NCBI GenBank assembly: GCA_963755915.1
Contig: CAVWLP010000002.1
Coordinates: forward strand, 3,648,001 to 3,712,000
DNA from: an uncultured Phycisphaerales bacterium
GTDB lineage: Bacteria; Planctomycetota; Phycisphaerae; Tepidisphaerales; Tepidisphaeraceae
Direction: 5' to 3'
DNA: 64,000 nucleotides
Below the pieces are notes generated by a model that made no database searches, was not told where the DNA came from, and saw nothing but the letters and a program-made list of their open reading frames with translations. The position numbers and the translations under genes are program-made. The first letter of the stretch is position 1. Every line of letters begins with the position of its first letter. This document shows positions 49,748 to 54,564 of this stretch, piece after piece.

Positions 49748-50767
49748 ATGGTTACGAGCGGCAGTTCTGCAACGTCTAAACCCCCCTATCAAGGGAAGCC
49801 CGTTGGGTTTACGCTTGTAGAGCTTCTGGTTGTTATTGGAATCATTGCGATTCTTCTCGGCCTGTTGCTGCCCGTTATTGCCAAGGCCCGCGAGCAGGCC
49901 AACCAGGTCAAATGCATGGCCAATTTGCGCACAATTGGACACGCCATAGCGATGTATGCCTCAGACAACGGCGGTTATCTGCCGTTTGGATTTGTACAGG
50001 TCGGAGAGACCATCGGAAATGGCGGCGTCACCTACTCCGATGTCAGCAATCCAACCGGTGACAAGTCAGATTACGTAGACTGGACCATCCTCATCACCCA
50101 CGAGCTTAGCTCAATAGCGGGCACCAGCAGTCTGAACAACCAGACGACCAGCTCCACCAATCCGGGAGTTCGAGGCTATTTCATTTGTCCCACCGCGCCC
50201 GTCTCGACAGTGAACTGCGATTTTTCAGACTACTCCTGTCACCCCAGGCTTATGCCGGATTTGGGAACGCCCGATTACCTGAATCAGGTCCCCGTCAGCA
50301 GGACCAACCCCGGCTATCTCCCTTATCTAAAGCCCTACAAGCTGGCGCAAATACAACGATCGACCGAAATCGCATTGATCTTCGATGCCTCGGTGGCGTC
50401 TCAATACGGGGCCTTTAACGTCGCGTCGGTTGCCTTTGCGATTGATAATGGAAACGTCTACAACACCCATACAACCTGTCTTTCGGATCAATACGGTTCA
50501 ACGTACAACTCCCAGATGATCGATTCCGGCCAGCCGATTGACCCCTACGCCGGGAAAGAGCCGGCAACGCCCGTCCCCAGCGACTTGAACGCCGACACCA
50601 CCGACAACTGGGGAAACATCCGCTTTCGGCATCTCGGAGAAACCGCGGCCAACGCCCTGATGGTCGACGGCCACGTCGAGGTGTTCCATTTCAATCCGCA
50701 TGAGCCCGCGACGAGCATGACCGACCTGTTGCGAAAGAACATCAACGTCAACCTTTCGACCCCGTAA
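49748..50767 (+). CDS. Prepilin-type N-methylation / H-X9-DG (DUF1559-like) protein
   Basis: [49 protein letters not shown]. Confidence 0.9.
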
Positions 50768-50912
50768 CATGCTCCCGCCGGTTAGCGAATCCCGGCAAGC
50801 GTCTTTCGCTACAAAACCAGCCCATCGGTAGAAATCTCGATTTTTCGCTTGATTTTTCGAATTTATGTGAAACAATTCATGGTCTCAAGACGTTTAGTCG
50901 ATGGAGAAAGCT

Positions 50913-50996
50913 ATGCGGCAACATTGGTATCCAGAAAATATGAGTGAGACAGCCAAACGATGCGGGTCATTCCGCCTCGATTTGGCCAATTTATAA
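50913..50996 (+). CDS. Putative leader peptide MRQHWYPENMSETAKRCGSFRLDLANL
   Basis: GGAG at 50903-50906, ATG 50913, TAA 50994-50996; followed directly by alternative hairpins and the tRNA array. Confidence 0.5.
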   Translation: MRQHWYPENMSETAKRCGSFRLDLANL

Positions 50997-51095
50997 ACTC
51001 CCTGCCGCGTCGGCCGGGAGTTCTTCCCGGCTGAAAGTAATCAACACTTAAATCCGGGACGCAATTGGAAATACAGCCGGGCGCTTGTTGCGTCC
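50996..51095 (+). promoter_or_regulatory. Attenuator-like set of mutually exclusive hairpins
   Basis: 50996-51007/51011-51022 competes with 51011-51020/51024-51033; CCCGGCTG (51026) also matches CAGCCGGG (51074), which lies inside GGACGCAA/TTGCGTCC (51057/51088). Confidence 0.5.
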
Positions 51096-51151
51096 TGCTG
51101 CCAAACAAGAGAGGTCCGCGGAATAACCCCGCGCTGATCCAATCTCGGTTC

Positions 51152-51226
51152 GCGCCTGTAGCTCAATTGGCAAGCAGCGCCGCGCTTACATCGCGGAGGT
51201 TGCTGGTTCAAGTCCAGCCTGGCGCA
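51152..51226 (+). tRNA. tRNA-Val(TAC)
   Basis: Anticodon arm CCGCG-CT TAC AT-CGCGG; T loop TTCAAGT; one acceptor mismatch. Confidence 0.85.
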
Positions 51227-51271
51227 TGAAAGGACAAAGGCCGTGAAAACGCCTGGAAAATCAGGCCTTTT

Positions 51272-51343
51272 ACGCTGTTAGCTCAGAGGCAGAGCACCCG
51301 CCCGATAAGCGGGAGGCCGGAGAGTCGAGACCTCCACGGCGTA
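51272..51343 (+). tRNA. tRNA-Ile(GAT), degenerate T arm
   Basis: CCCGC-CC GAT AA-GCGGG; T arm reads GGAGAGTCGAGACCTCC. Confidence 0.7.
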
Positions 51344-51354
51344 CTGAAAATCTC

Positions 51355-51429
51355 GCACTGGTAGCTCAATCGGATCAGAGCTCCGGTCTACGAAACCGGA
51401 GGTTGAAGGTTCGAATCCTTCCCAGTGCA
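51355..51429 (+). tRNA. tRNA-Arg(ACG)
   Basis: CCGGT-CT ACG AA-ACCGG; canonical arms. Confidence 0.95.
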
Positions 51430-51488
51430 CTGGTGTCGTAAGTGATTGTATCTAATTACGATGTATTTGTGGTTGCTGATAAGGTTTC

Positions 51489-51560
51489 GCACTCGTAGCT
51501 CAACGGCGGAGCCACCGGCTCTTAACCGGTGGGTTGCAGGTTCGAATCCTGCCGGGTGCA
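51489..51560 (+). tRNA. tRNA-Lys(CTT)
   Basis: ACCGG-CT CTT AA-CCGGT. Confidence 0.93.
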
Positions 51561-51614
51561 TGAAAGGAGAATGTCAGATGAATCGGTTCAGGAGAAAACG
51601 GTGCAAATAATTCC

Positions 51615-51689
51615 GCACCGGTAGCTCAACGGAATCAGAGCAACCCTCTTCTAAAGGGTCGGCTGGGGGTTCGAATCCCTCCCGGTGCA
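51615..51689 (+). tRNA. tRNA-Arg(TCT)
   Basis: ACCCT-CT TCT AA-AGGGT. Confidence 0.93.
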
Positions 51690-51701
51690 TGCGGACAGTG
51701 C

Positions 51702-51773
51702 GCACCGGTAGCTCAATGGCAGAGCCGCCGCCTTTTAAGCGGAACCATGCAGGTTCGATTCCTGCCCGGTGCA
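51702..51773 (+). tRNA. tRNA-Lys(TTT)
   Basis: CCGC-CT TTT AA-GCGG. Confidence 0.9.
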
Positions 51774-51789
51774 TGAAGAGAAAAGTTTC

Positions 51790-51864
51790 GGTTCAGTAGC
51801 CCAACCGGCAGAGGCGCCTGACTCAGAATCAGACTTAGTGCAGGTTCGAATCCTGCCTGGACCA
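51790..51864 (+). tRNA. tRNA-Leu(CAG), short variable loop
   Basis: CTGA-CT CAG AA-TCAG; only about 6 nt before the T arm. Confidence 0.85.
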
Positions 51865-51873
51865 TAGAAAAAA

Positions 51874-52111
51874 GTTGCGGTAGCTCAATCGGATTGGCTC
51901 TGTCTCATGAATCATCGCGCGGCCAGACGAAGTGGATTTCGTCCTCGGGCAAGGAGCGACGACGAGCAGTATTGAACGGAAATACGGCGAGGAGGAGCGA
52001 CGCCGGCCGAGGACGAAAGACACGAGTCGGGCCCGCGAGGATTCATGAGACAGAGCCGAGAGCGCGGCTCTCCGAAGGCCGAGGTTGAAGGTTCGATCCC
52101 TTCCCGCGACG
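51874..52111 (+). tRNA. tRNA-Arg(CCG) with ~164-nt hairpin inserted in the D loop
   Basis: GTTGCGG-TA-GCTC-AATCGGAT [51895-52058] A-GAGC-G-CGGCT-CT CCG AA-GGCCG-AGGTT-GAAGG TTCGATC CCTTC-CCGCGAC-G. Confidence 0.85.
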
Positions 52112-52126
52112 TGAAAGAAAAACATT

Positions 52127-52198
52127 GGGCCCGTCGTCTAACGGGAAGACTCCTGGCCTGCAACCAGGAAATGAGGGTTCGATTCCCTCCGGCGTCCA
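52127..52198 (+). tRNA. tRNA-Ala(TGC)
   Basis: CCTGG-CC TGC AA-CCAGG; G3:U70 present; one bulged C in the acceptor stem. Confidence 0.85.
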
Positions 52199-52205
52199 TC
52201 GGATT

Positions 52206-52279
52206 GCTTCGGTAGCCCAACCGGAAGAGGCGCGTGATCGAGGTTCACGTCAGTGCAGGTTCGAGTCCTGCCCGGAGCA
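52206..52279 (+). tRNA. tRNA-Leu(GAG), short variable loop
   Basis: CGTGA-TC GAG GT-TCACG; variable loop TCAGT. Confidence 0.85.
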
Positions 52280-52292
52280 CTGAAAGCGTTTC

Positions 52293-52366
52293 GCCGCGGT
52301 AGCCCAATGGCAGAGGCGGTGGTCTCAAGAACCGTTTGTGTGTGGGTTCAAATCCCACCCGCGGCA
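52293..52366 (+). tRNA. tRNA-Leu(CAA), short variable loop
   Basis: GTGGT-CT CAA GA-ACCGT; variable loop about 6 nt. Confidence 0.85.
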
Positions 52367-52426
52367 TGAAAGGAGAATCCGATGAGTAGCGGCTCATCAC
52401 AAAAAAATAGCGAAGACTCCGATTGC

Positions 52427-52510
52427 GGAGGGTTGGCCGAACGGTAAGGCATCCGTCTCGAAAACGGACATGGCGCACGCGCCTTGGGGGTTCGAATCCC
52501 TCACCCTCCT
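52427..52510 (+). tRNA. tRNA-Ser(CGA)
   Basis: TCCGT-CT CGA AA-ACGGA; long variable arm. Confidence 0.9.
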
Positions 52511-52563
52511 TCCGACTCGCGCAGAGCGCTCGGCCTGCCGTGAGCGAGCGCAGCGAGTCGAAC

Positions 52564-52652
52564 GGAGGGTTGGCAGAGTGGCCTAACGCGCCGGGTTGCT
52601 AACTCGGAAGGCTTTGAAAAGGGCCTCGAAGGTTCGAATCCTTCACCCTCCG
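52564..52652 (+). tRNA. tRNA-Ser(GCT)
   Basis: CCGGG-TT GCT AA-CTCGG; long variable arm. Confidence 0.92.
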
Positions 52653-52719
52653 CTGGATTTTGGGCGGTACGAAAATGGTTCGTCCCGCGAAGTGTTCTTT
52701 GACAATCAGGTGGCGTATT

Positions 52720-52792
52720 GCCGTCATAGCTCAGCGGAATGAGCGTCCGGTTGTCAACCGGAAGGCCATGGGTTCAACCCCCATTGACGGCG
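52720..52792 (+). tRNA. tRNA-Asp(GTC)
   Basis: TCCGG-TT GTC AA-CCGGA. Confidence 0.88.
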
Positions 52793-52797
52793 TTTTT

Positions 52798-52868
52798 GTG
52801 GATTCAGCTCCAAGGTAGAGCGGGGGCCTGAAGAGCCCCAGGGCTTGGTTCGATTCCAGGAGTCCACA
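52798..52868 (+). tRNA. tRNA-Phe(GAA)
   Basis: GGGGC-CT GAA GA-GCCCC. Confidence 0.88.
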
Positions 52869-52878
52869 TTGAAGCGAT

Positions 52879-52949
52879 GCGTCGGTAGTTCAGCGGTCGA
52901 ACACCGCTATGCCAATGCGGAGGCCCGGGTTCTATTCCCGGCCGGCGCA
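52879..52949 (+). tRNA. tRNA-Gly(GCC)
   Basis: CCGC-TAT GCC AAT-GCGG; T loop TTCTATT. Confidence 0.8.
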
Positions 52950-52962
52950 CTGAGATTGACGA

Positions 52963-53034
52963 GCAGTGATAACTCAGCCGGGAGAGTGCCGGTCTTCCAA
53001 ACCGGAGACGTGGGTTCGAATCCCGCTCACTGCA
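52963..53034 (+). tRNA. tRNA-Gly(TCC)
   Basis: CCGGT-CT TCC AA-ACCGG. Confidence 0.9.
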
Positions 53035-53049
53035 TAATGCGAGTTTGAT

Positions 53050-53122
53050 GCCGTGGTAGCTCAAAGGGTAGAGCGGTCGTCTCGTAAACGACAGATCGCC
53101 GGTTCGATCCCGGCCCGCGGCT
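53050..53122 (+). tRNA. tRNA-Thr(CGT)
   Basis: GTCGT-CT CGT AA-ACGAC. Confidence 0.93.
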
Positions 53123-53136
53123 CTTAGGGATATTCT

Positions 53137-53210
53137 GGGTGCGTAGCTCAATGGCGGAGCAGGGGCCTCATAAGCCCAAGGTTGTTGGTTCGAATCCAAC
53201 CGTTCACCCA
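53137..53210 (+). tRNA. tRNA-Met or Ile2 (CAT)
   Basis: GGGC-CT CAT AA-GCCC; two extra nt in the acceptor 3' strand. Confidence 0.8.
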
Positions 53211-53227
53211 TTTTTAGAAACTTTTAT

Positions 53228-53300
53228 ACAGGGATAGTTCAATCGGTAGAACGCTCGGCTCTGAACCGGGTTGCTGGAGGTTCGAATCCTTCTCCCTGAA
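53228..53300 (+). tRNA. tRNA-Gln(CTG)
   Basis: CTCGG-CT CTG AA-CCGGG; unpaired 1:72. Confidence 0.88.
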
Positions 53301-53301
53301 C

Positions 53302-53374
53302 TGAGCCGTAGTTCAATCGGTAGCAATGCCGGTCTTTGAATCCGGCGATCGTGGTTCGAATCCACGCGGCTCAA
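53302..53374 (+). tRNA. tRNA-Gln(TTG)
   Basis: CCGG-TCT TTG AAT-CCGG; U1:A72. Confidence 0.85.
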
Positions 53375-53384
53375 ATACCTTAAT

Positions 53385-53458
53385 ACCTTCGTGGTGGAAT
53401 TGGTACCACACTCGGTTGTTACCCGATGAGATTGCAGGTTCGAATCCTGCCGAAGGTG
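53385..53458 (+). tRNA. tRNA-Asn(GTT)
   Basis: TCGG-TT GTT AC-CCGA; G73. Confidence 0.85.
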
Positions 53459-53460
53459 TT

Positions 53461-53570
53461 AGCGGAGCGAGACGCTCCGCTAGAAGGTAGAAAGTAGAGA
53501 GTAGAAAGTAGACTGAAATCCCGTCTTCCCTACTTTGTACTTTCTACTCTCAACTTTCTCGCGCAGCGCC
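53461..53570. repeat. Palindromic intergenic element with AGTAGA-type repeats
   Basis: AGCGGAGCG-AGA-CGCTCCGCT, then purine-rich arm 53482-53511 complementary to pyrimidine arm 53530-53559; right end matches 28270-28289 in reverse complement. Confidence 0.6.
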
Positions 53571-53642
53571 GCTCTCGTCGTCTAATGGTCAGGATAACCG
53601 GCCTTCAACCGGAGAGTGTGGGTTCGATTCCCTCCGGGAGCA
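53571..53642 (+). tRNA. tRNA-Glu(TTC)
   Basis: CCGG-CC TTC AA-CCGG; D arm GTCT AATGGTC AGGAT. Confidence 0.82.
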
Positions 53643-53656
53643 CTGCAAGTTCAATT

Positions 53657-53730
53657 CAGCGTGTGGCGAAGCTTGGCATCGCGCGTGCCTCGGGCGCACG
53701 AGATCGAAGGTTCGAATCCTTCCACGCTGA
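53657..53730 (+). tRNA. tRNA-Pro(CGG)
   Basis: CGTGC-CT CGG GC-GCACG; C1:G72, A73. Confidence 0.93.
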
Positions 53731-53740
53731 CTGTTTTAGC

Positions 53741-53825
53741 GCGTAGGTCGCATAACTGGCATTGCAGCGGGCTGTAACCCCGCCGACCCAACGGGTTTTT
53801 GGGGGTTCAAATCCCTCCCTACGCA
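53741..53825 (+). tRNA. tRNA-Tyr(GTA)
   Basis: GCGGG-CT GTA AC-CCCGC; long variable arm. Confidence 0.92.
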
Positions 53826-53846
53826 TTGCGGCCAGAGGCCGCGAAC

Positions 53847-53919
53847 GCGCCGGCTGTTCCAGCGGTGGAACGCCCGCCTCCAAATCGGGAAACGGCAGGT
53901 TCGATCCCTGCCCGGCGCT
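53847..53919 (+). tRNA. tRNA-Trp(CCA)
   Basis: CCCG-CCT CCA AAT-CGGG; atypical positions 8-9 and discriminator. Confidence 0.78.
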
Positions 53920-53929
53920 GAAACTTTTT

Positions 53930-54001
53930 GAGGATGTGGCCGAATGGCAAGGCGCGGGTCTGCAAAGCCTGCTGATGCTGGTTCGAATCCAGTCATCCTC
54001 T
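53930..54001 (+). tRNA. tRNA-Cys(GCA)
   Basis: CGGGT-CT GCA AA-GCCTG; U73. Confidence 0.9.
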
Positions 54002-54003
54002 TT

Positions 54004-54078
54004 GTGGCCGTAGCTCAACTGGATCAGAGCACCGGGATGTGGCCCCGGTCGTTGTGAGTTCAAATCTCACCGGTCACC
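54004..54078 (+). tRNA. tRNA-His(GTG), no encoded G-1
   Basis: CCGGG-AT GTG GC-CCCGG; C73; T at position -1. Confidence 0.9.
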
Positions 54079-54124
54079 CTGAAAAAATACGCCCCCTGTT
54101 GTCGGTTTGTGAAAGGAGTTTGAG

Positions 54125-54385
54125 ATGACGCGTGCAACGCAATTTGACGTTTTGCCGGCCGATGTCGGCGCCGCAAGCGTTGCGGTGATTCACGTTCGGT
54201 TTGCCGGACAAAGCTTTGACGTTCCGCTGGCGAGCCTGGATGTCGGCGTCCAAAGCGCTGACGGCGCCATCAGGGCAGCCGTGGCCAACTGGCTGAGAGT
54301 GTCGCCGGCCCGTCTGGAGGCCTATGTGATCGACCGCCATGCCAACGGCAATCTGACGATTCGTCCCGAAGCGGTTTTCGGATGA
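54125..54385 (+). CDS. Small Gly-terminated protein, candidate ubiquitin/ThiS-like modifier
   Basis: AAGGAG RBS; 86 aa; strand-strand-helix-strand pattern (VIHVRFAGQSFDVPL...IRAAVANWL...NLTIRPEAVFG-stop); ThiF gene in the same unit. Confidence 0.7.
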   Translation: MTRATQFDVLPADVGAASVAVIHVRFAGQSFDVPLASLDVGVQSADGAIRAAVANWLRVSPARLEAYVIDRHANGNLTIRPEAVFG

Positions 54386-54397
54386 ATCGTGTTGCCG

Positions 54398-54564
54398 TGC
54401 CGCGGCCGGGACGCCGGGATCGCACCCAACGCCAGAAGCTTACAAACAAGGTTGGCACGGCGGGCAACCGCTGTGCCAGGGGTGCGAATCCCCCCAGAGG
54501 TCCTGGTTAGGACCGCAACAGATGCTTTTGTGACTCGTGCGATCGCGGCGTCCCGGCCGCGGCA
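54398..54564 (+). ncRNA. Y-RNA-like ncRNA unit 1
   Basis: Long closing stem TGCCGCGGCCGGGACGCCG..GATCGCAC / GTGCGATC..CGGCGTCCCGGCCGCGGCA; CCAACG-N4-AAGC-TTACAAAC ... GCTT-TTGTGACTC; T-arm-like GGGG TGCGAAT CCCC. Confidence 0.75.

Follow-up and report, generated by a model that had tools for sequence, protein, structure and literature searches.

Introns of bacterial tRNA genes typically belong to group I and are located in the anticodon loop; those of archaea are of the bulge-helix-bulge type (a 4-bp helix with a 3-nt bulge on either side where exon meets intron), and some of them reside in the D loop. Among the mobile elements, a type II MITE has sequence in common with its parent IS in the terminal inverted repeats only, as described in an excerpt of PMC10969869, and the same excerpt states that the paired ends of Correia elements in Neisseria transcripts are cut by RNase III (PMC10969869). 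Long tRNA arrays are characterised in extracts of two further reports as horizontally spread and supernumerary, with pseudogenes among their members and with Planctomycetes among the phyla that harbour them (PMC8421152, PMC4758250). In the Anabaena array, according to the extract of one of these reports, 3 of the 26 genes were undetected and were counted as pseudogenes (PMC8421152).

The window analysed here (the whole stretch of 64,000 nt, G000:C2:3648001-3712000, from a Tepidisphaeraceae-like soil planctomycete) harbours a tRNA-Arg(CCG) gene whose D loop is interrupted by a long hairpin. At a rough probability of 0.8, the insert represents a type II MITE that interrupts the tRNA gene and has an IS5-family element as its partner. 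The interruption of a gene by a MITE is a known kind of event; a report of this element, or of a MITE in the D loop of a bacterial tRNA, was not found by title or abstract start in the open-access full-text literature. On this reading, the locus holds no bacterial D-loop intron and represents a recent MITE insertion in a redundant array gene.

The insert shares with type II MITEs its small size, non-coding nature, multiple copies, IS-matching ends and the short direct repeats at most copies, as well as presence/absence polymorphism and the interruption of a gene. It differs from them in that the interior is better conserved than the ends and is common to subfamilies matching two IS5-family elements, in its nearly fixed length and in the missing duplication at the tRNA copy. 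The IS5-family ISs (~0.9 kb) have the same 18-19-nt ends and the same TAA/TTA or TA flanks as the MITE family, whereas the tRNA insert is devoid of a transposase gene. Correia elements of Neisseria, as far as their excerpted description goes, are likewise MITEs of ~150 nt which form a long double-stranded stem when co-transcribed, but their sequence and host phylum are unrelated, and we know of no counterpart of the G.A-tandem helix (described below) in them. Similar to the long tRNA arrays of the extracts cited above, the array studied here contains supernumerary genes, among which a dead member is expected; those arrays are of spotty occurrence, whereas this one keeps its synteny in many genomes of a single family and the probable cause of gene death, a MITE, is visible in it. 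With tRNA introns, the insert has in common that its removal restores a canonical tRNA and that its position in the D loop resembles some archaeal cases; in contrast to them, it has neither a ribozyme fold nor a bulge-helix-bulge, is mobile in intergenic DNA and is absent from the orthologues.

The interrupted tRNA-Arg(CCG) gene and its array

The genome that contains the window (6.63 Mb in 3 contigs, 59% G+C) is 81% complete, and the neighbouring genes are those of a chromosome: they encode cytochrome b, a sigma-54 activator and a DUF1559/N-methyl protein of a type common in Planctomycetota. The long tRNA gene array occupies 51152..54079 on the forward strand, where ARAGORN called 26 tRNAs and skipped the interrupted tRNA-Arg(CCG). 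Along with one more tRNA recognised by Rfam only (51272-51343), the array comprises 28 tRNA genes within 2.9 kb, which duplicate the housekeeping set dispersed over the genome, and its gene order is the same in related genomes.

The two halves of the tRNA-Arg(CCG) lie on the forward strand at 51874-52111, and the D loop between them is interrupted by a perfect-stemmed hairpin of 162-164 nt. The 5' part (51874..51894) consists of GTTGCGG, TA (positions 8-9), the D-stem strand GCTC and the D-loop segment AATCGGAT, and is the same as in the orthologues except for a polymorphic C/T in the D loop. The 3' part (52059..52111) proceeds from A21 and GAGC through the CCG anticodon arm, variable loop, T arm and acceptor to the discriminator G; a single base, at position 26, separates it from the orthologue in the related genome G001. 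Each half carries one difference from G001, at a site which is polymorphic among the orthologues, with no decay otherwise; G18, G19, A20 and A21 as well as every stem are intact.

The sequence-only reading, made from the letters of the window, had proposed that removal of 51895-52058 restores the tRNA, and in-silico excision of this segment indeed gave a 74-nt tRNA-Arg(CCG) accepted by ARAGORN. Since removal of 162 or 165 nt (yielding a 76- or 73-nt tRNA) was accepted as well, the tRNA by itself does not define the exact border of the insert. A contiguous cloverleaf of tRNA-Arg(CCG) is recognised by the tRNA finder after in-silico removal of the insert only. Left in its interrupted state, the gene receives no call from ARAGORN and a sub-threshold partial match from Rfam (52054-52103; 22 bits against a gathering score of 29), in line with the earlier expectation that standard finders may miss it. 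As tRNA finders lose MITE-interrupted genes, inventories of arrays can be one gene short. Scanning of 50600-54500 for promoters and terminators was uninformative, the counts being at shuffle expectation (2 vs 1.1 and 5 vs 5.0).

Family alignments delimit the insert as a 162-nt, rod-like hairpin of subfamily A, the probable type II MITE, at 51896..52057 of the forward strand. Its left terminal inverted repeat, GGCTCTGTCTCATGAATC (51896..51913), matches the pattern GGSYCTGTCTSATGAATC, which is common to this repeat and an 887-bp IS5-family element of the genome G155; the right repeat, GATTCATGAGACAGAGCC (52040..52057), is the exact reverse complement of the left one. An inner stem is formed by TTTCGTCCTCGG and CCGAGGACGAAA (51937-51948 and 52007-52018), and AGGAGCGACG occurs twice, with starts at 51952 and 51993. 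All these features (the 18-bp inverted repeat, the inner stem and the repeated motif) had been pointed out beforehand and were recovered at the same positions. Among the consensus pairs of the 162-nt element, 54 of 56 are Watson-Crick. The 238-nt stretch of tRNA halves and insert folds at -132.9 kcal/mol, compared with -87.9 +/- 5.3 in 200 shuffles (z = -8.5, with 0/200 shuffles as stable); in the predicted fold, the acceptor stem and the insert appear as separate domains, the latter being a single unbranched hairpin. No family of Rfam 15, including group I, group II and ribozymes, matched the insert (51895-52058) at E<=1. The window copy has an ATG-started frame, which is not conserved in subfamily B.

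The dispersed family and its IS5-family relatives

The family to which the insert belongs is dispersed and mobile. In its own genome, a BLAST search with the 164-nt sequence retrieved, besides fragments, two copies located at C2:1293537 (86%) and at C2:4944187 (77%), and an HMM built from three full copies led to eight more of ~165 nt, which are nearly identical mutually (subfamily B). With BLAST, nhmmer and the covariance model, the genome yields 3 subfamily-A and 8 near-identical subfamily-B copies plus fragments, hence at least 11 full copies of the family; the covariance model gives 23 matches at E<=0.01. A BLAST search for dispersed copies had been recommended as a check, and the many copies found point to an insertion-interrupted gene. 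The sequence of the tRNA copy is unique in the assembly, the nearest other copy being 86% identical. Other copies examined are intergenic (none in tRNAs), several of them 0-60 nt from a stop codon, and the element is present at at least 10 intergenic sites of the genome with transposon-type flanks. Comparison of the 10 non-tRNA copies with neighbouring long ORFs (crude stop-to-stop frames, GC3-filtered) showed no clear bias of orientation: ~6 copies point the same way as the neighbouring ORF, 3 point the opposite way and 1 lies between convergent genes.

At the family level, copies were detected by BLAST (E<=1e-8) in 3 of 61 genomes, including the one studied here, and the terminal-repeat pattern was found in 19 of 141 family genomes, a patchy distribution. 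Within the genus, G001, G006 and G011 have several copies each. One unpublished genome (G014) is among those of the 41-, 61- and 141-genome searches, and no claim is based on it. The length of the element is nearly fixed, with exactly 162 nt in 28 of the 41 distinct copies. A metagenome scan with the inner stem of the window copy (30 nt, exact) gave 0 matches and thus no donor or second site.

The subfamily-A end pattern (<=1 mismatch) occurs in G155 29 times in forward and 28 times in reverse orientation, paired 887 bp apart. The 887-bp element so delimited encodes orfA (DUF4096, 3.5e-26) and orfB (DDE_Tnp_1, 3.4e-17), an IS5-family architecture which we take to be typical of the IS427/IS1031 groups. 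Elements of the IS427/IS1031 subgroups generate 2-4-bp TA/TNA duplications. The genome of the window carries two identical 888-bp IS5-family relatives (33% identity over the DDE part), whose ends match the subfamily-B repeat and whose flanks are TAA/TAA and TTA/TTA. With either IS, similarity of the MITE is confined to the terminal 17-19 nt (blastn-short). The end of the G155 element and a MITE copy of G011 are 100% identical over 19 nt, and the window copy agrees with the G155 element at 13/14 and 14/15 aligned bases. Assignment to the type II MITEs follows from these terminal repeats, which match the IS, together with an interior unrelated to it. An IS with subfamily-A ends was not found in the window's own genome by a fuzzy end search and the terminal-repeat pattern; the fuzzy end search (<=4 mismatches) returned MITE copies, the two subfamily-B-type ISs and one 271-nt composite element only.

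Flanks of the form TA..TA surround 22 of 46 copies and identical TNA a further 8, together 30/46; neither a TA nor a TNA repeat is present at the other 16, among which is the tRNA copy. As many copies are TA-flanked, DDE_3 transposases were also examined, and 8 DDE_3 matches as well as two IS630-family element types with TA flanks were detected in the genome.

An IS630/Tc1-mariner MITE was rejected as a candidate, the IS630-family (DDE_3) elements of the genome ending in GAGCATTTCC, unlike the MITE ends. The end-like match in L057 was weak, did not form an inverted repeat and was likewise discarded.

Empty and filled alleles, the junction and the fate of the gene

The insertion is lineage-specific and still polymorphic. 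When 51600-52400 was compared by BLAST with 41 related genomes, the flanks of the insert were seen to adjoin each other in G001 (95-96% identity), G010 and G015, and in all three an intact 75-nt tRNA-Arg(CCG) is called by ARAGORN between tRNA-Leu(CAG) and tRNA-Ala(UGC). An exact-pattern scan of species-representative genomes with the 20-nt 5' half of the tRNA gave 18 loci, 13 of which are the same array in Tepidisphaeraceae/Phycisphaerales MAGs; the remaining 5 match by chance and lie outside tRNA genes in other phyla. The comparison of orthologous arrays suggested by the sequence-only reading gave a uniform result, with an uninterrupted tRNA-Arg of 73-76 nt (12 CCG, 1 GCG) in 13/13 orthologous arrays, at least one of which (L082) is the G001 locus and is thus counted in both comparisons. 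The orthologues have D loops of 8 to 11 bases and carry ACC, ATC, AATC, ATTC, ATA or A between G19 and A21; since this stretch varies among them, the insert occupies the segment of the D loop that is most tolerant of length changes.

Contigs of one metagenome run (X1) represent both alleles. The filled allele is seen in a short-read-derived contig that spans the 5' junction (51600-51972, 2 differences and 1 gap) and connects tRNA-Leu(CAG) and the 5' half of the tRNA-Arg with 77 nt of the insert; X1 may be the source sample of the genome, and this contig is hence not independent support. The empty allele is seen in a second X1 contig, which joins 51893 to 52059 via CC and on its 3' side aligns over 122 nt without gaps and with a single difference, in a stretch where the G001 orthologue has an indel. 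As the empty-allele contig is closer to the genome of the window than G001 is, the insertion is recent.

The tRNA copy is flanked by ..GGATT and GAGAGC.. with no direct repeat between them, which agrees with the earlier remark that a target-site duplication is not evident. Two junction bases are of uncertain origin, namely T51895 (from the target or the element) and G52058, with which it can wobble-pair. At the junction point before A21, the orthologues have CC, TC, ATC, TTC or TA, and none has a G before A21. Comparison of the empty (..GGA CC AGAGC..) with the filled allele (..GGA TT + element + G AGAGC..) shows CC replaced, which is not the outcome expected of simple IS5-type transposition, and a simple TA/TNA duplication of any orthologue D-loop variant fails to yield the observed flanks. 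Since the tRNA copy has no TA/TNA duplication, the insertion step was atypical or small changes took place later. An atypical integration, for example capture at a break, would have lost two bases and gained three; alternatively, small changes after the insertion may have produced the present flanks.

ARAGORN reports 83 tRNAs in the genome, with a dispersed set besides the array. Two standard tRNA-Arg(CCG) genes of 75 nt each are located elsewhere (C3:142725 and C3:153314), and the array copy is therefore redundant and dispensable. Judged from its sequence, the interrupted tRNA-Arg(CCG) gene is probably inactivated. An IS5-family transposase supplied in trans would have moved the 162-nt MITE, which would have entered a supernumerary array gene between position 20 and A21, where the D loop is variable. 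The array transcript would then carry a near-continuous helix of ~75 pairs beside A20, the base that abuts the insert and that we take to be a main ArgRS identity element in E. coli. Such a helix would be of the RNase III substrate type, and bacteria are presumed to have no pathway rejoining halves of this kind; an RNase III domain is present in the genome. Cleavage of the array transcript by RNase III may be expected because Correia-element transcripts are likewise long-stemmed. The cell would be unharmed owing to the two standard genes elsewhere. The locus would provide a dated example of a long-array tRNA gene becoming a pseudogene, with empty and filled alleles in one metagenome run.

Other explanations of the insert concern the gene product. 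The hairpin might be tolerated at the outer elbow of the tRNA, or be trimmed by RNase III, with the two halves kept together by what is left of the stem and by the helices of the tRNA itself, so as to leave a split or enlarged but usable tRNA-Arg; this would fit with its position in a D loop that varies from 8 to 11 bases in the orthologues, with the separate domains of acceptor stem and hairpin in the predicted fold, and with the intact G18, G19, A20, A21 and stems of two halves that are free of decay. However, the insert is recent and lack of decay in the halves therefore says little, and tolerance is rendered improbable by the empty allele in a near-identical strain, the 13/13 uninterrupted orthologues, the intact tRNA-Arg(CCG) genes elsewhere that make the function unneeded, and a hairpin that abuts A20. 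To our knowledge, there is no precedent for a functional bacterial tRNA with a 160-nt D-loop insert. The earlier suggestion of a hairpin MITE/REP-like element tolerated because it folds out thus survives in its first half, which the dispersed copies, empty orthologous sites and IS5-family ends favour; its second half is improbable, the gene being dispensable. Its other suggestion, a novel excisable intron of 164 nt (self-spliced or removed by an enzyme, with ligation of the exons), was abandoned as highly implausible. A strongly structured insert and a canonical tRNA after in-silico removal are what an intron would offer, but Rfam detects neither a group I or group II intron nor a ribozyme in the insert at E<=1, and in place of a bulge-helix-bulge the junction shows an uninterrupted 18-bp helix, extended by a T.G pair, with a blunt base. 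Furthermore, the tRNA splicing endonuclease domain (tRNA_int_endo, PF01974) had 0 matches in this 81% complete genome, the control matching 4 archaeal genomes, and the same element is present at at least 10 intergenic sites and absent from 13/13 orthologous genes.

With regard to the origin of the insert, a REP/REPIN-like palindrome moved by a Y1 (RAYT-type) transposase would explain the missing duplication; the palindrome is long and near-perfect, and two Y1_Tnp matches exist in the genome (C3:1125127 and C3:576500). We regard this origin as unlikely, since the family shares terminal stretches of 18-19 identical nt with IS5-family elements and TA/TNA direct repeats like those of the ISs accompany 30/46 copies. 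A further candidate is an assembly artefact, with a repeat copy misplaced inside the tRNA gene; the element is a multi-copy repeat, and copies do lie at contig ends in some draft genomes (G186). Such misplacement is very hard to reconcile with a genome of 3 contigs in which the site is 3.7 Mb from the start of a contig of 5.0 Mb, with a copy that is unique in the genome (next best 86% identical) and with the X1 contig bridging the 5' junction, although X1 and the genome may stem from one sample. The reading as a type II MITE with an IS5-family partner is preferred over these explanations.

Six RNA runs contained at most 7% of the sampled words. Contigs of RNA run X15 covered neighbouring conserved tRNAs only and are uninformative on expression of the insert either way. 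In addition, a low-depth contig of run X3, from another study, joins 51865 to 52125 and skips the whole tRNA-Arg; it probably derives from another organism and was left out of account.

The conserved 92-nt core

The family alignment comprises 37 distinct copies from six genomes in 177 columns, and its best-conserved part is the centre, not the ends. The fold predicted by RNAalifold is a single hairpin with 56 pairs and no branches, and compensatory double changes occur in 37 of the pairs. In the conserved 92-nt core (51932..52023, forward strand), which scores 103.8 bits with the covariance model R1, an inner stem that covaries is joined by a G.A-tandem helix to an apical stem-loop. In the G.A-tandem helix, two purine-rich strands, GGAGCGACGACGAGC on the left (51953..51967; columns invariant or nearly so) and GCGAGGAGGAGCGAC on the right (51987..52001; from the family alignment and covariation), pair in register, with G-C or C-G pairs between tandem G.A/A.G mismatches. 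The repeated AGGAGCGACG of the sequence-only reading corresponds to these two strands paired in register. The apical stem-loop (51968..51986) has an AGTATT / AATAC stem, and double changes are found in all 7 pairs of this third helix.

A distant set of 40 core copies from 19 genomes, re-aligned by fitting to the model, pairs in 91.8% of cells compared with 63.2% in shuffles. It reaches a covariation score of 0.657, compared with 0.170 for shuffles (0/500 attain the observed value) and 0.08-0.15 with slid partners, and 27 of 29 pairs contain double changes. The isolated central C-G pairs are flipped to G-C in 6-8 of these 41 copies, a change seen across distant families, and the G.A steps stay. 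At the paired positions of the close set, G.U outnumbers A.C by 65 to 16 cells (31 vs 16 pairs); the distant set has 52 G.U and 15 A.C cells (18 vs 10 pairs), of which one pair holds 15 G.U cells, and such cells are not independent events. The excess of G.U could reflect selection on the RNA form of this strand (the tRNA sense strand in the window), a hint qualified by the fitting of the distant alignment to the model and by the lack of a clear orientation bias relative to neighbouring genes; the constraint may act on RNA or on single-stranded DNA.

The 92-nt interior could tentatively be viewed as a functional structured module, most likely RNA (strand GCGACGACGAG...GAGGAGGAGCGACG), hitch-hiking in IS5-type MITEs across Planctomycetota, a view that we hold to be doubtful. 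If it were RNA (for example, a protein-binding or RNase-resistant 3' UTR module), it would constitute a new phylum-wide class of mobile structured RNA. The core is, at any rate, a candidate structured mobile RNA or DNA element of Planctomycetota that is absent from Rfam. The MITE family, with an interior better conserved than its ends, a near-fixed length and a G.A-tandem helix that covaries phylum-wide, may outweigh the tRNA interruption in worth. A study of MITEs in Planctomycetota was not found by title in the open-access full-text literature.

A covariance model of the core, built from 41 sequences, gave no match in six listed genomes from other families of the same class. Across Planctomycetota, it matches 43 of 151 genomes (42 of 137 genera), and several genomes contain at least 28 scored core candidates each.

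Variant architectures of the MITE family

The conserved 92-nt core of the MITE that interrupts tRNA-Arg(CCG) is found in more than one arrangement. A 271-nt element of the genome under study, L096 (G000:C2:524170-524440), has ends of the family type (GGCTCTGTCTGAAAACTC) and contains two core modules in mutually opposite orientation, both of which are matched by the covariance model of the core (R1). In some other members, left end and core are present, and the right half is a different one that ends ..CCCTCCGGG.. in place of the right terminal repeat. This variant layout around the core occurs at the loci L098 and L100 (in the genomes G183 and G292) as well as at G000:C3:1330098 and C2:725292. 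Among the eight near-identical subfamily-B copies of G000, several (for example, C3:1173705-1173866 and C2:4862911-4863072) have in common a right-hand flank beyond the element, in which a GC-rich stem precedes a run of T, resembling a terminator. The repeated unit at these copies may be larger than the MITE.

Many of the core matches in the draft genome G186 fall no more than ~100 nt from the end of a contig. Short-read assemblies evidently break at the repeat, and copy numbers in draft genomes are therefore underestimates.

Other insertions and mobile elements

In a relative (L012, G015:C278), the spacer between tRNA-Leu(CAG) and tRNA-Arg(CCG) measures ~98 nt, as against ~9, and is palindromic with many GTCAGTGG / CCACTGAC repeats. 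Since its sequence is distinct from that of the window MITE, it represents a second, unrelated hairpin insertion adjoining the same tRNA-Arg gene. Apart from the MITEs, G000 harbours an IS630-family element of ~1020 bp with ends GAGCATTTCC.. and flanking TA, present in four copies outside the window (G000:C2:290107, 957584, 2161018 and 4234721), and a second IS630-family type in three copies.

Gene content of the tRNA array

The tRNA at window positions 51272-51343 was called by Rfam (51.2 bits) and is absent from the ARAGORN list, bringing the array total to 28 genes, with the interrupted tRNA-Arg(CCG) included. Three putative leucine tRNAs of the array, with the leucine anticodons CAG (51790-51864), GAG (52206-52280) and CAA (52293-52366), are only 74-75 nt long and thus, unlike normal bacterial tRNA-Leu, lack the long variable arm, whereas the dispersed tRNA-Leu genes elsewhere in G000 are 82-86 nt (ARAGORN). 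These short forms are kept in the arrays of related genomes.

ARAGORN also called several oversized tRNAs of 88-95 nt in G000 (for example, C2:4763011-4763104, C2:2378556-2378649 and C3:165275-165369), whose anticodons are those of tRNAs that are normally short (Arg CCG, Cys, Pro, Gly, His and Asn); these calls may be either false calls or insert-bearing genes.
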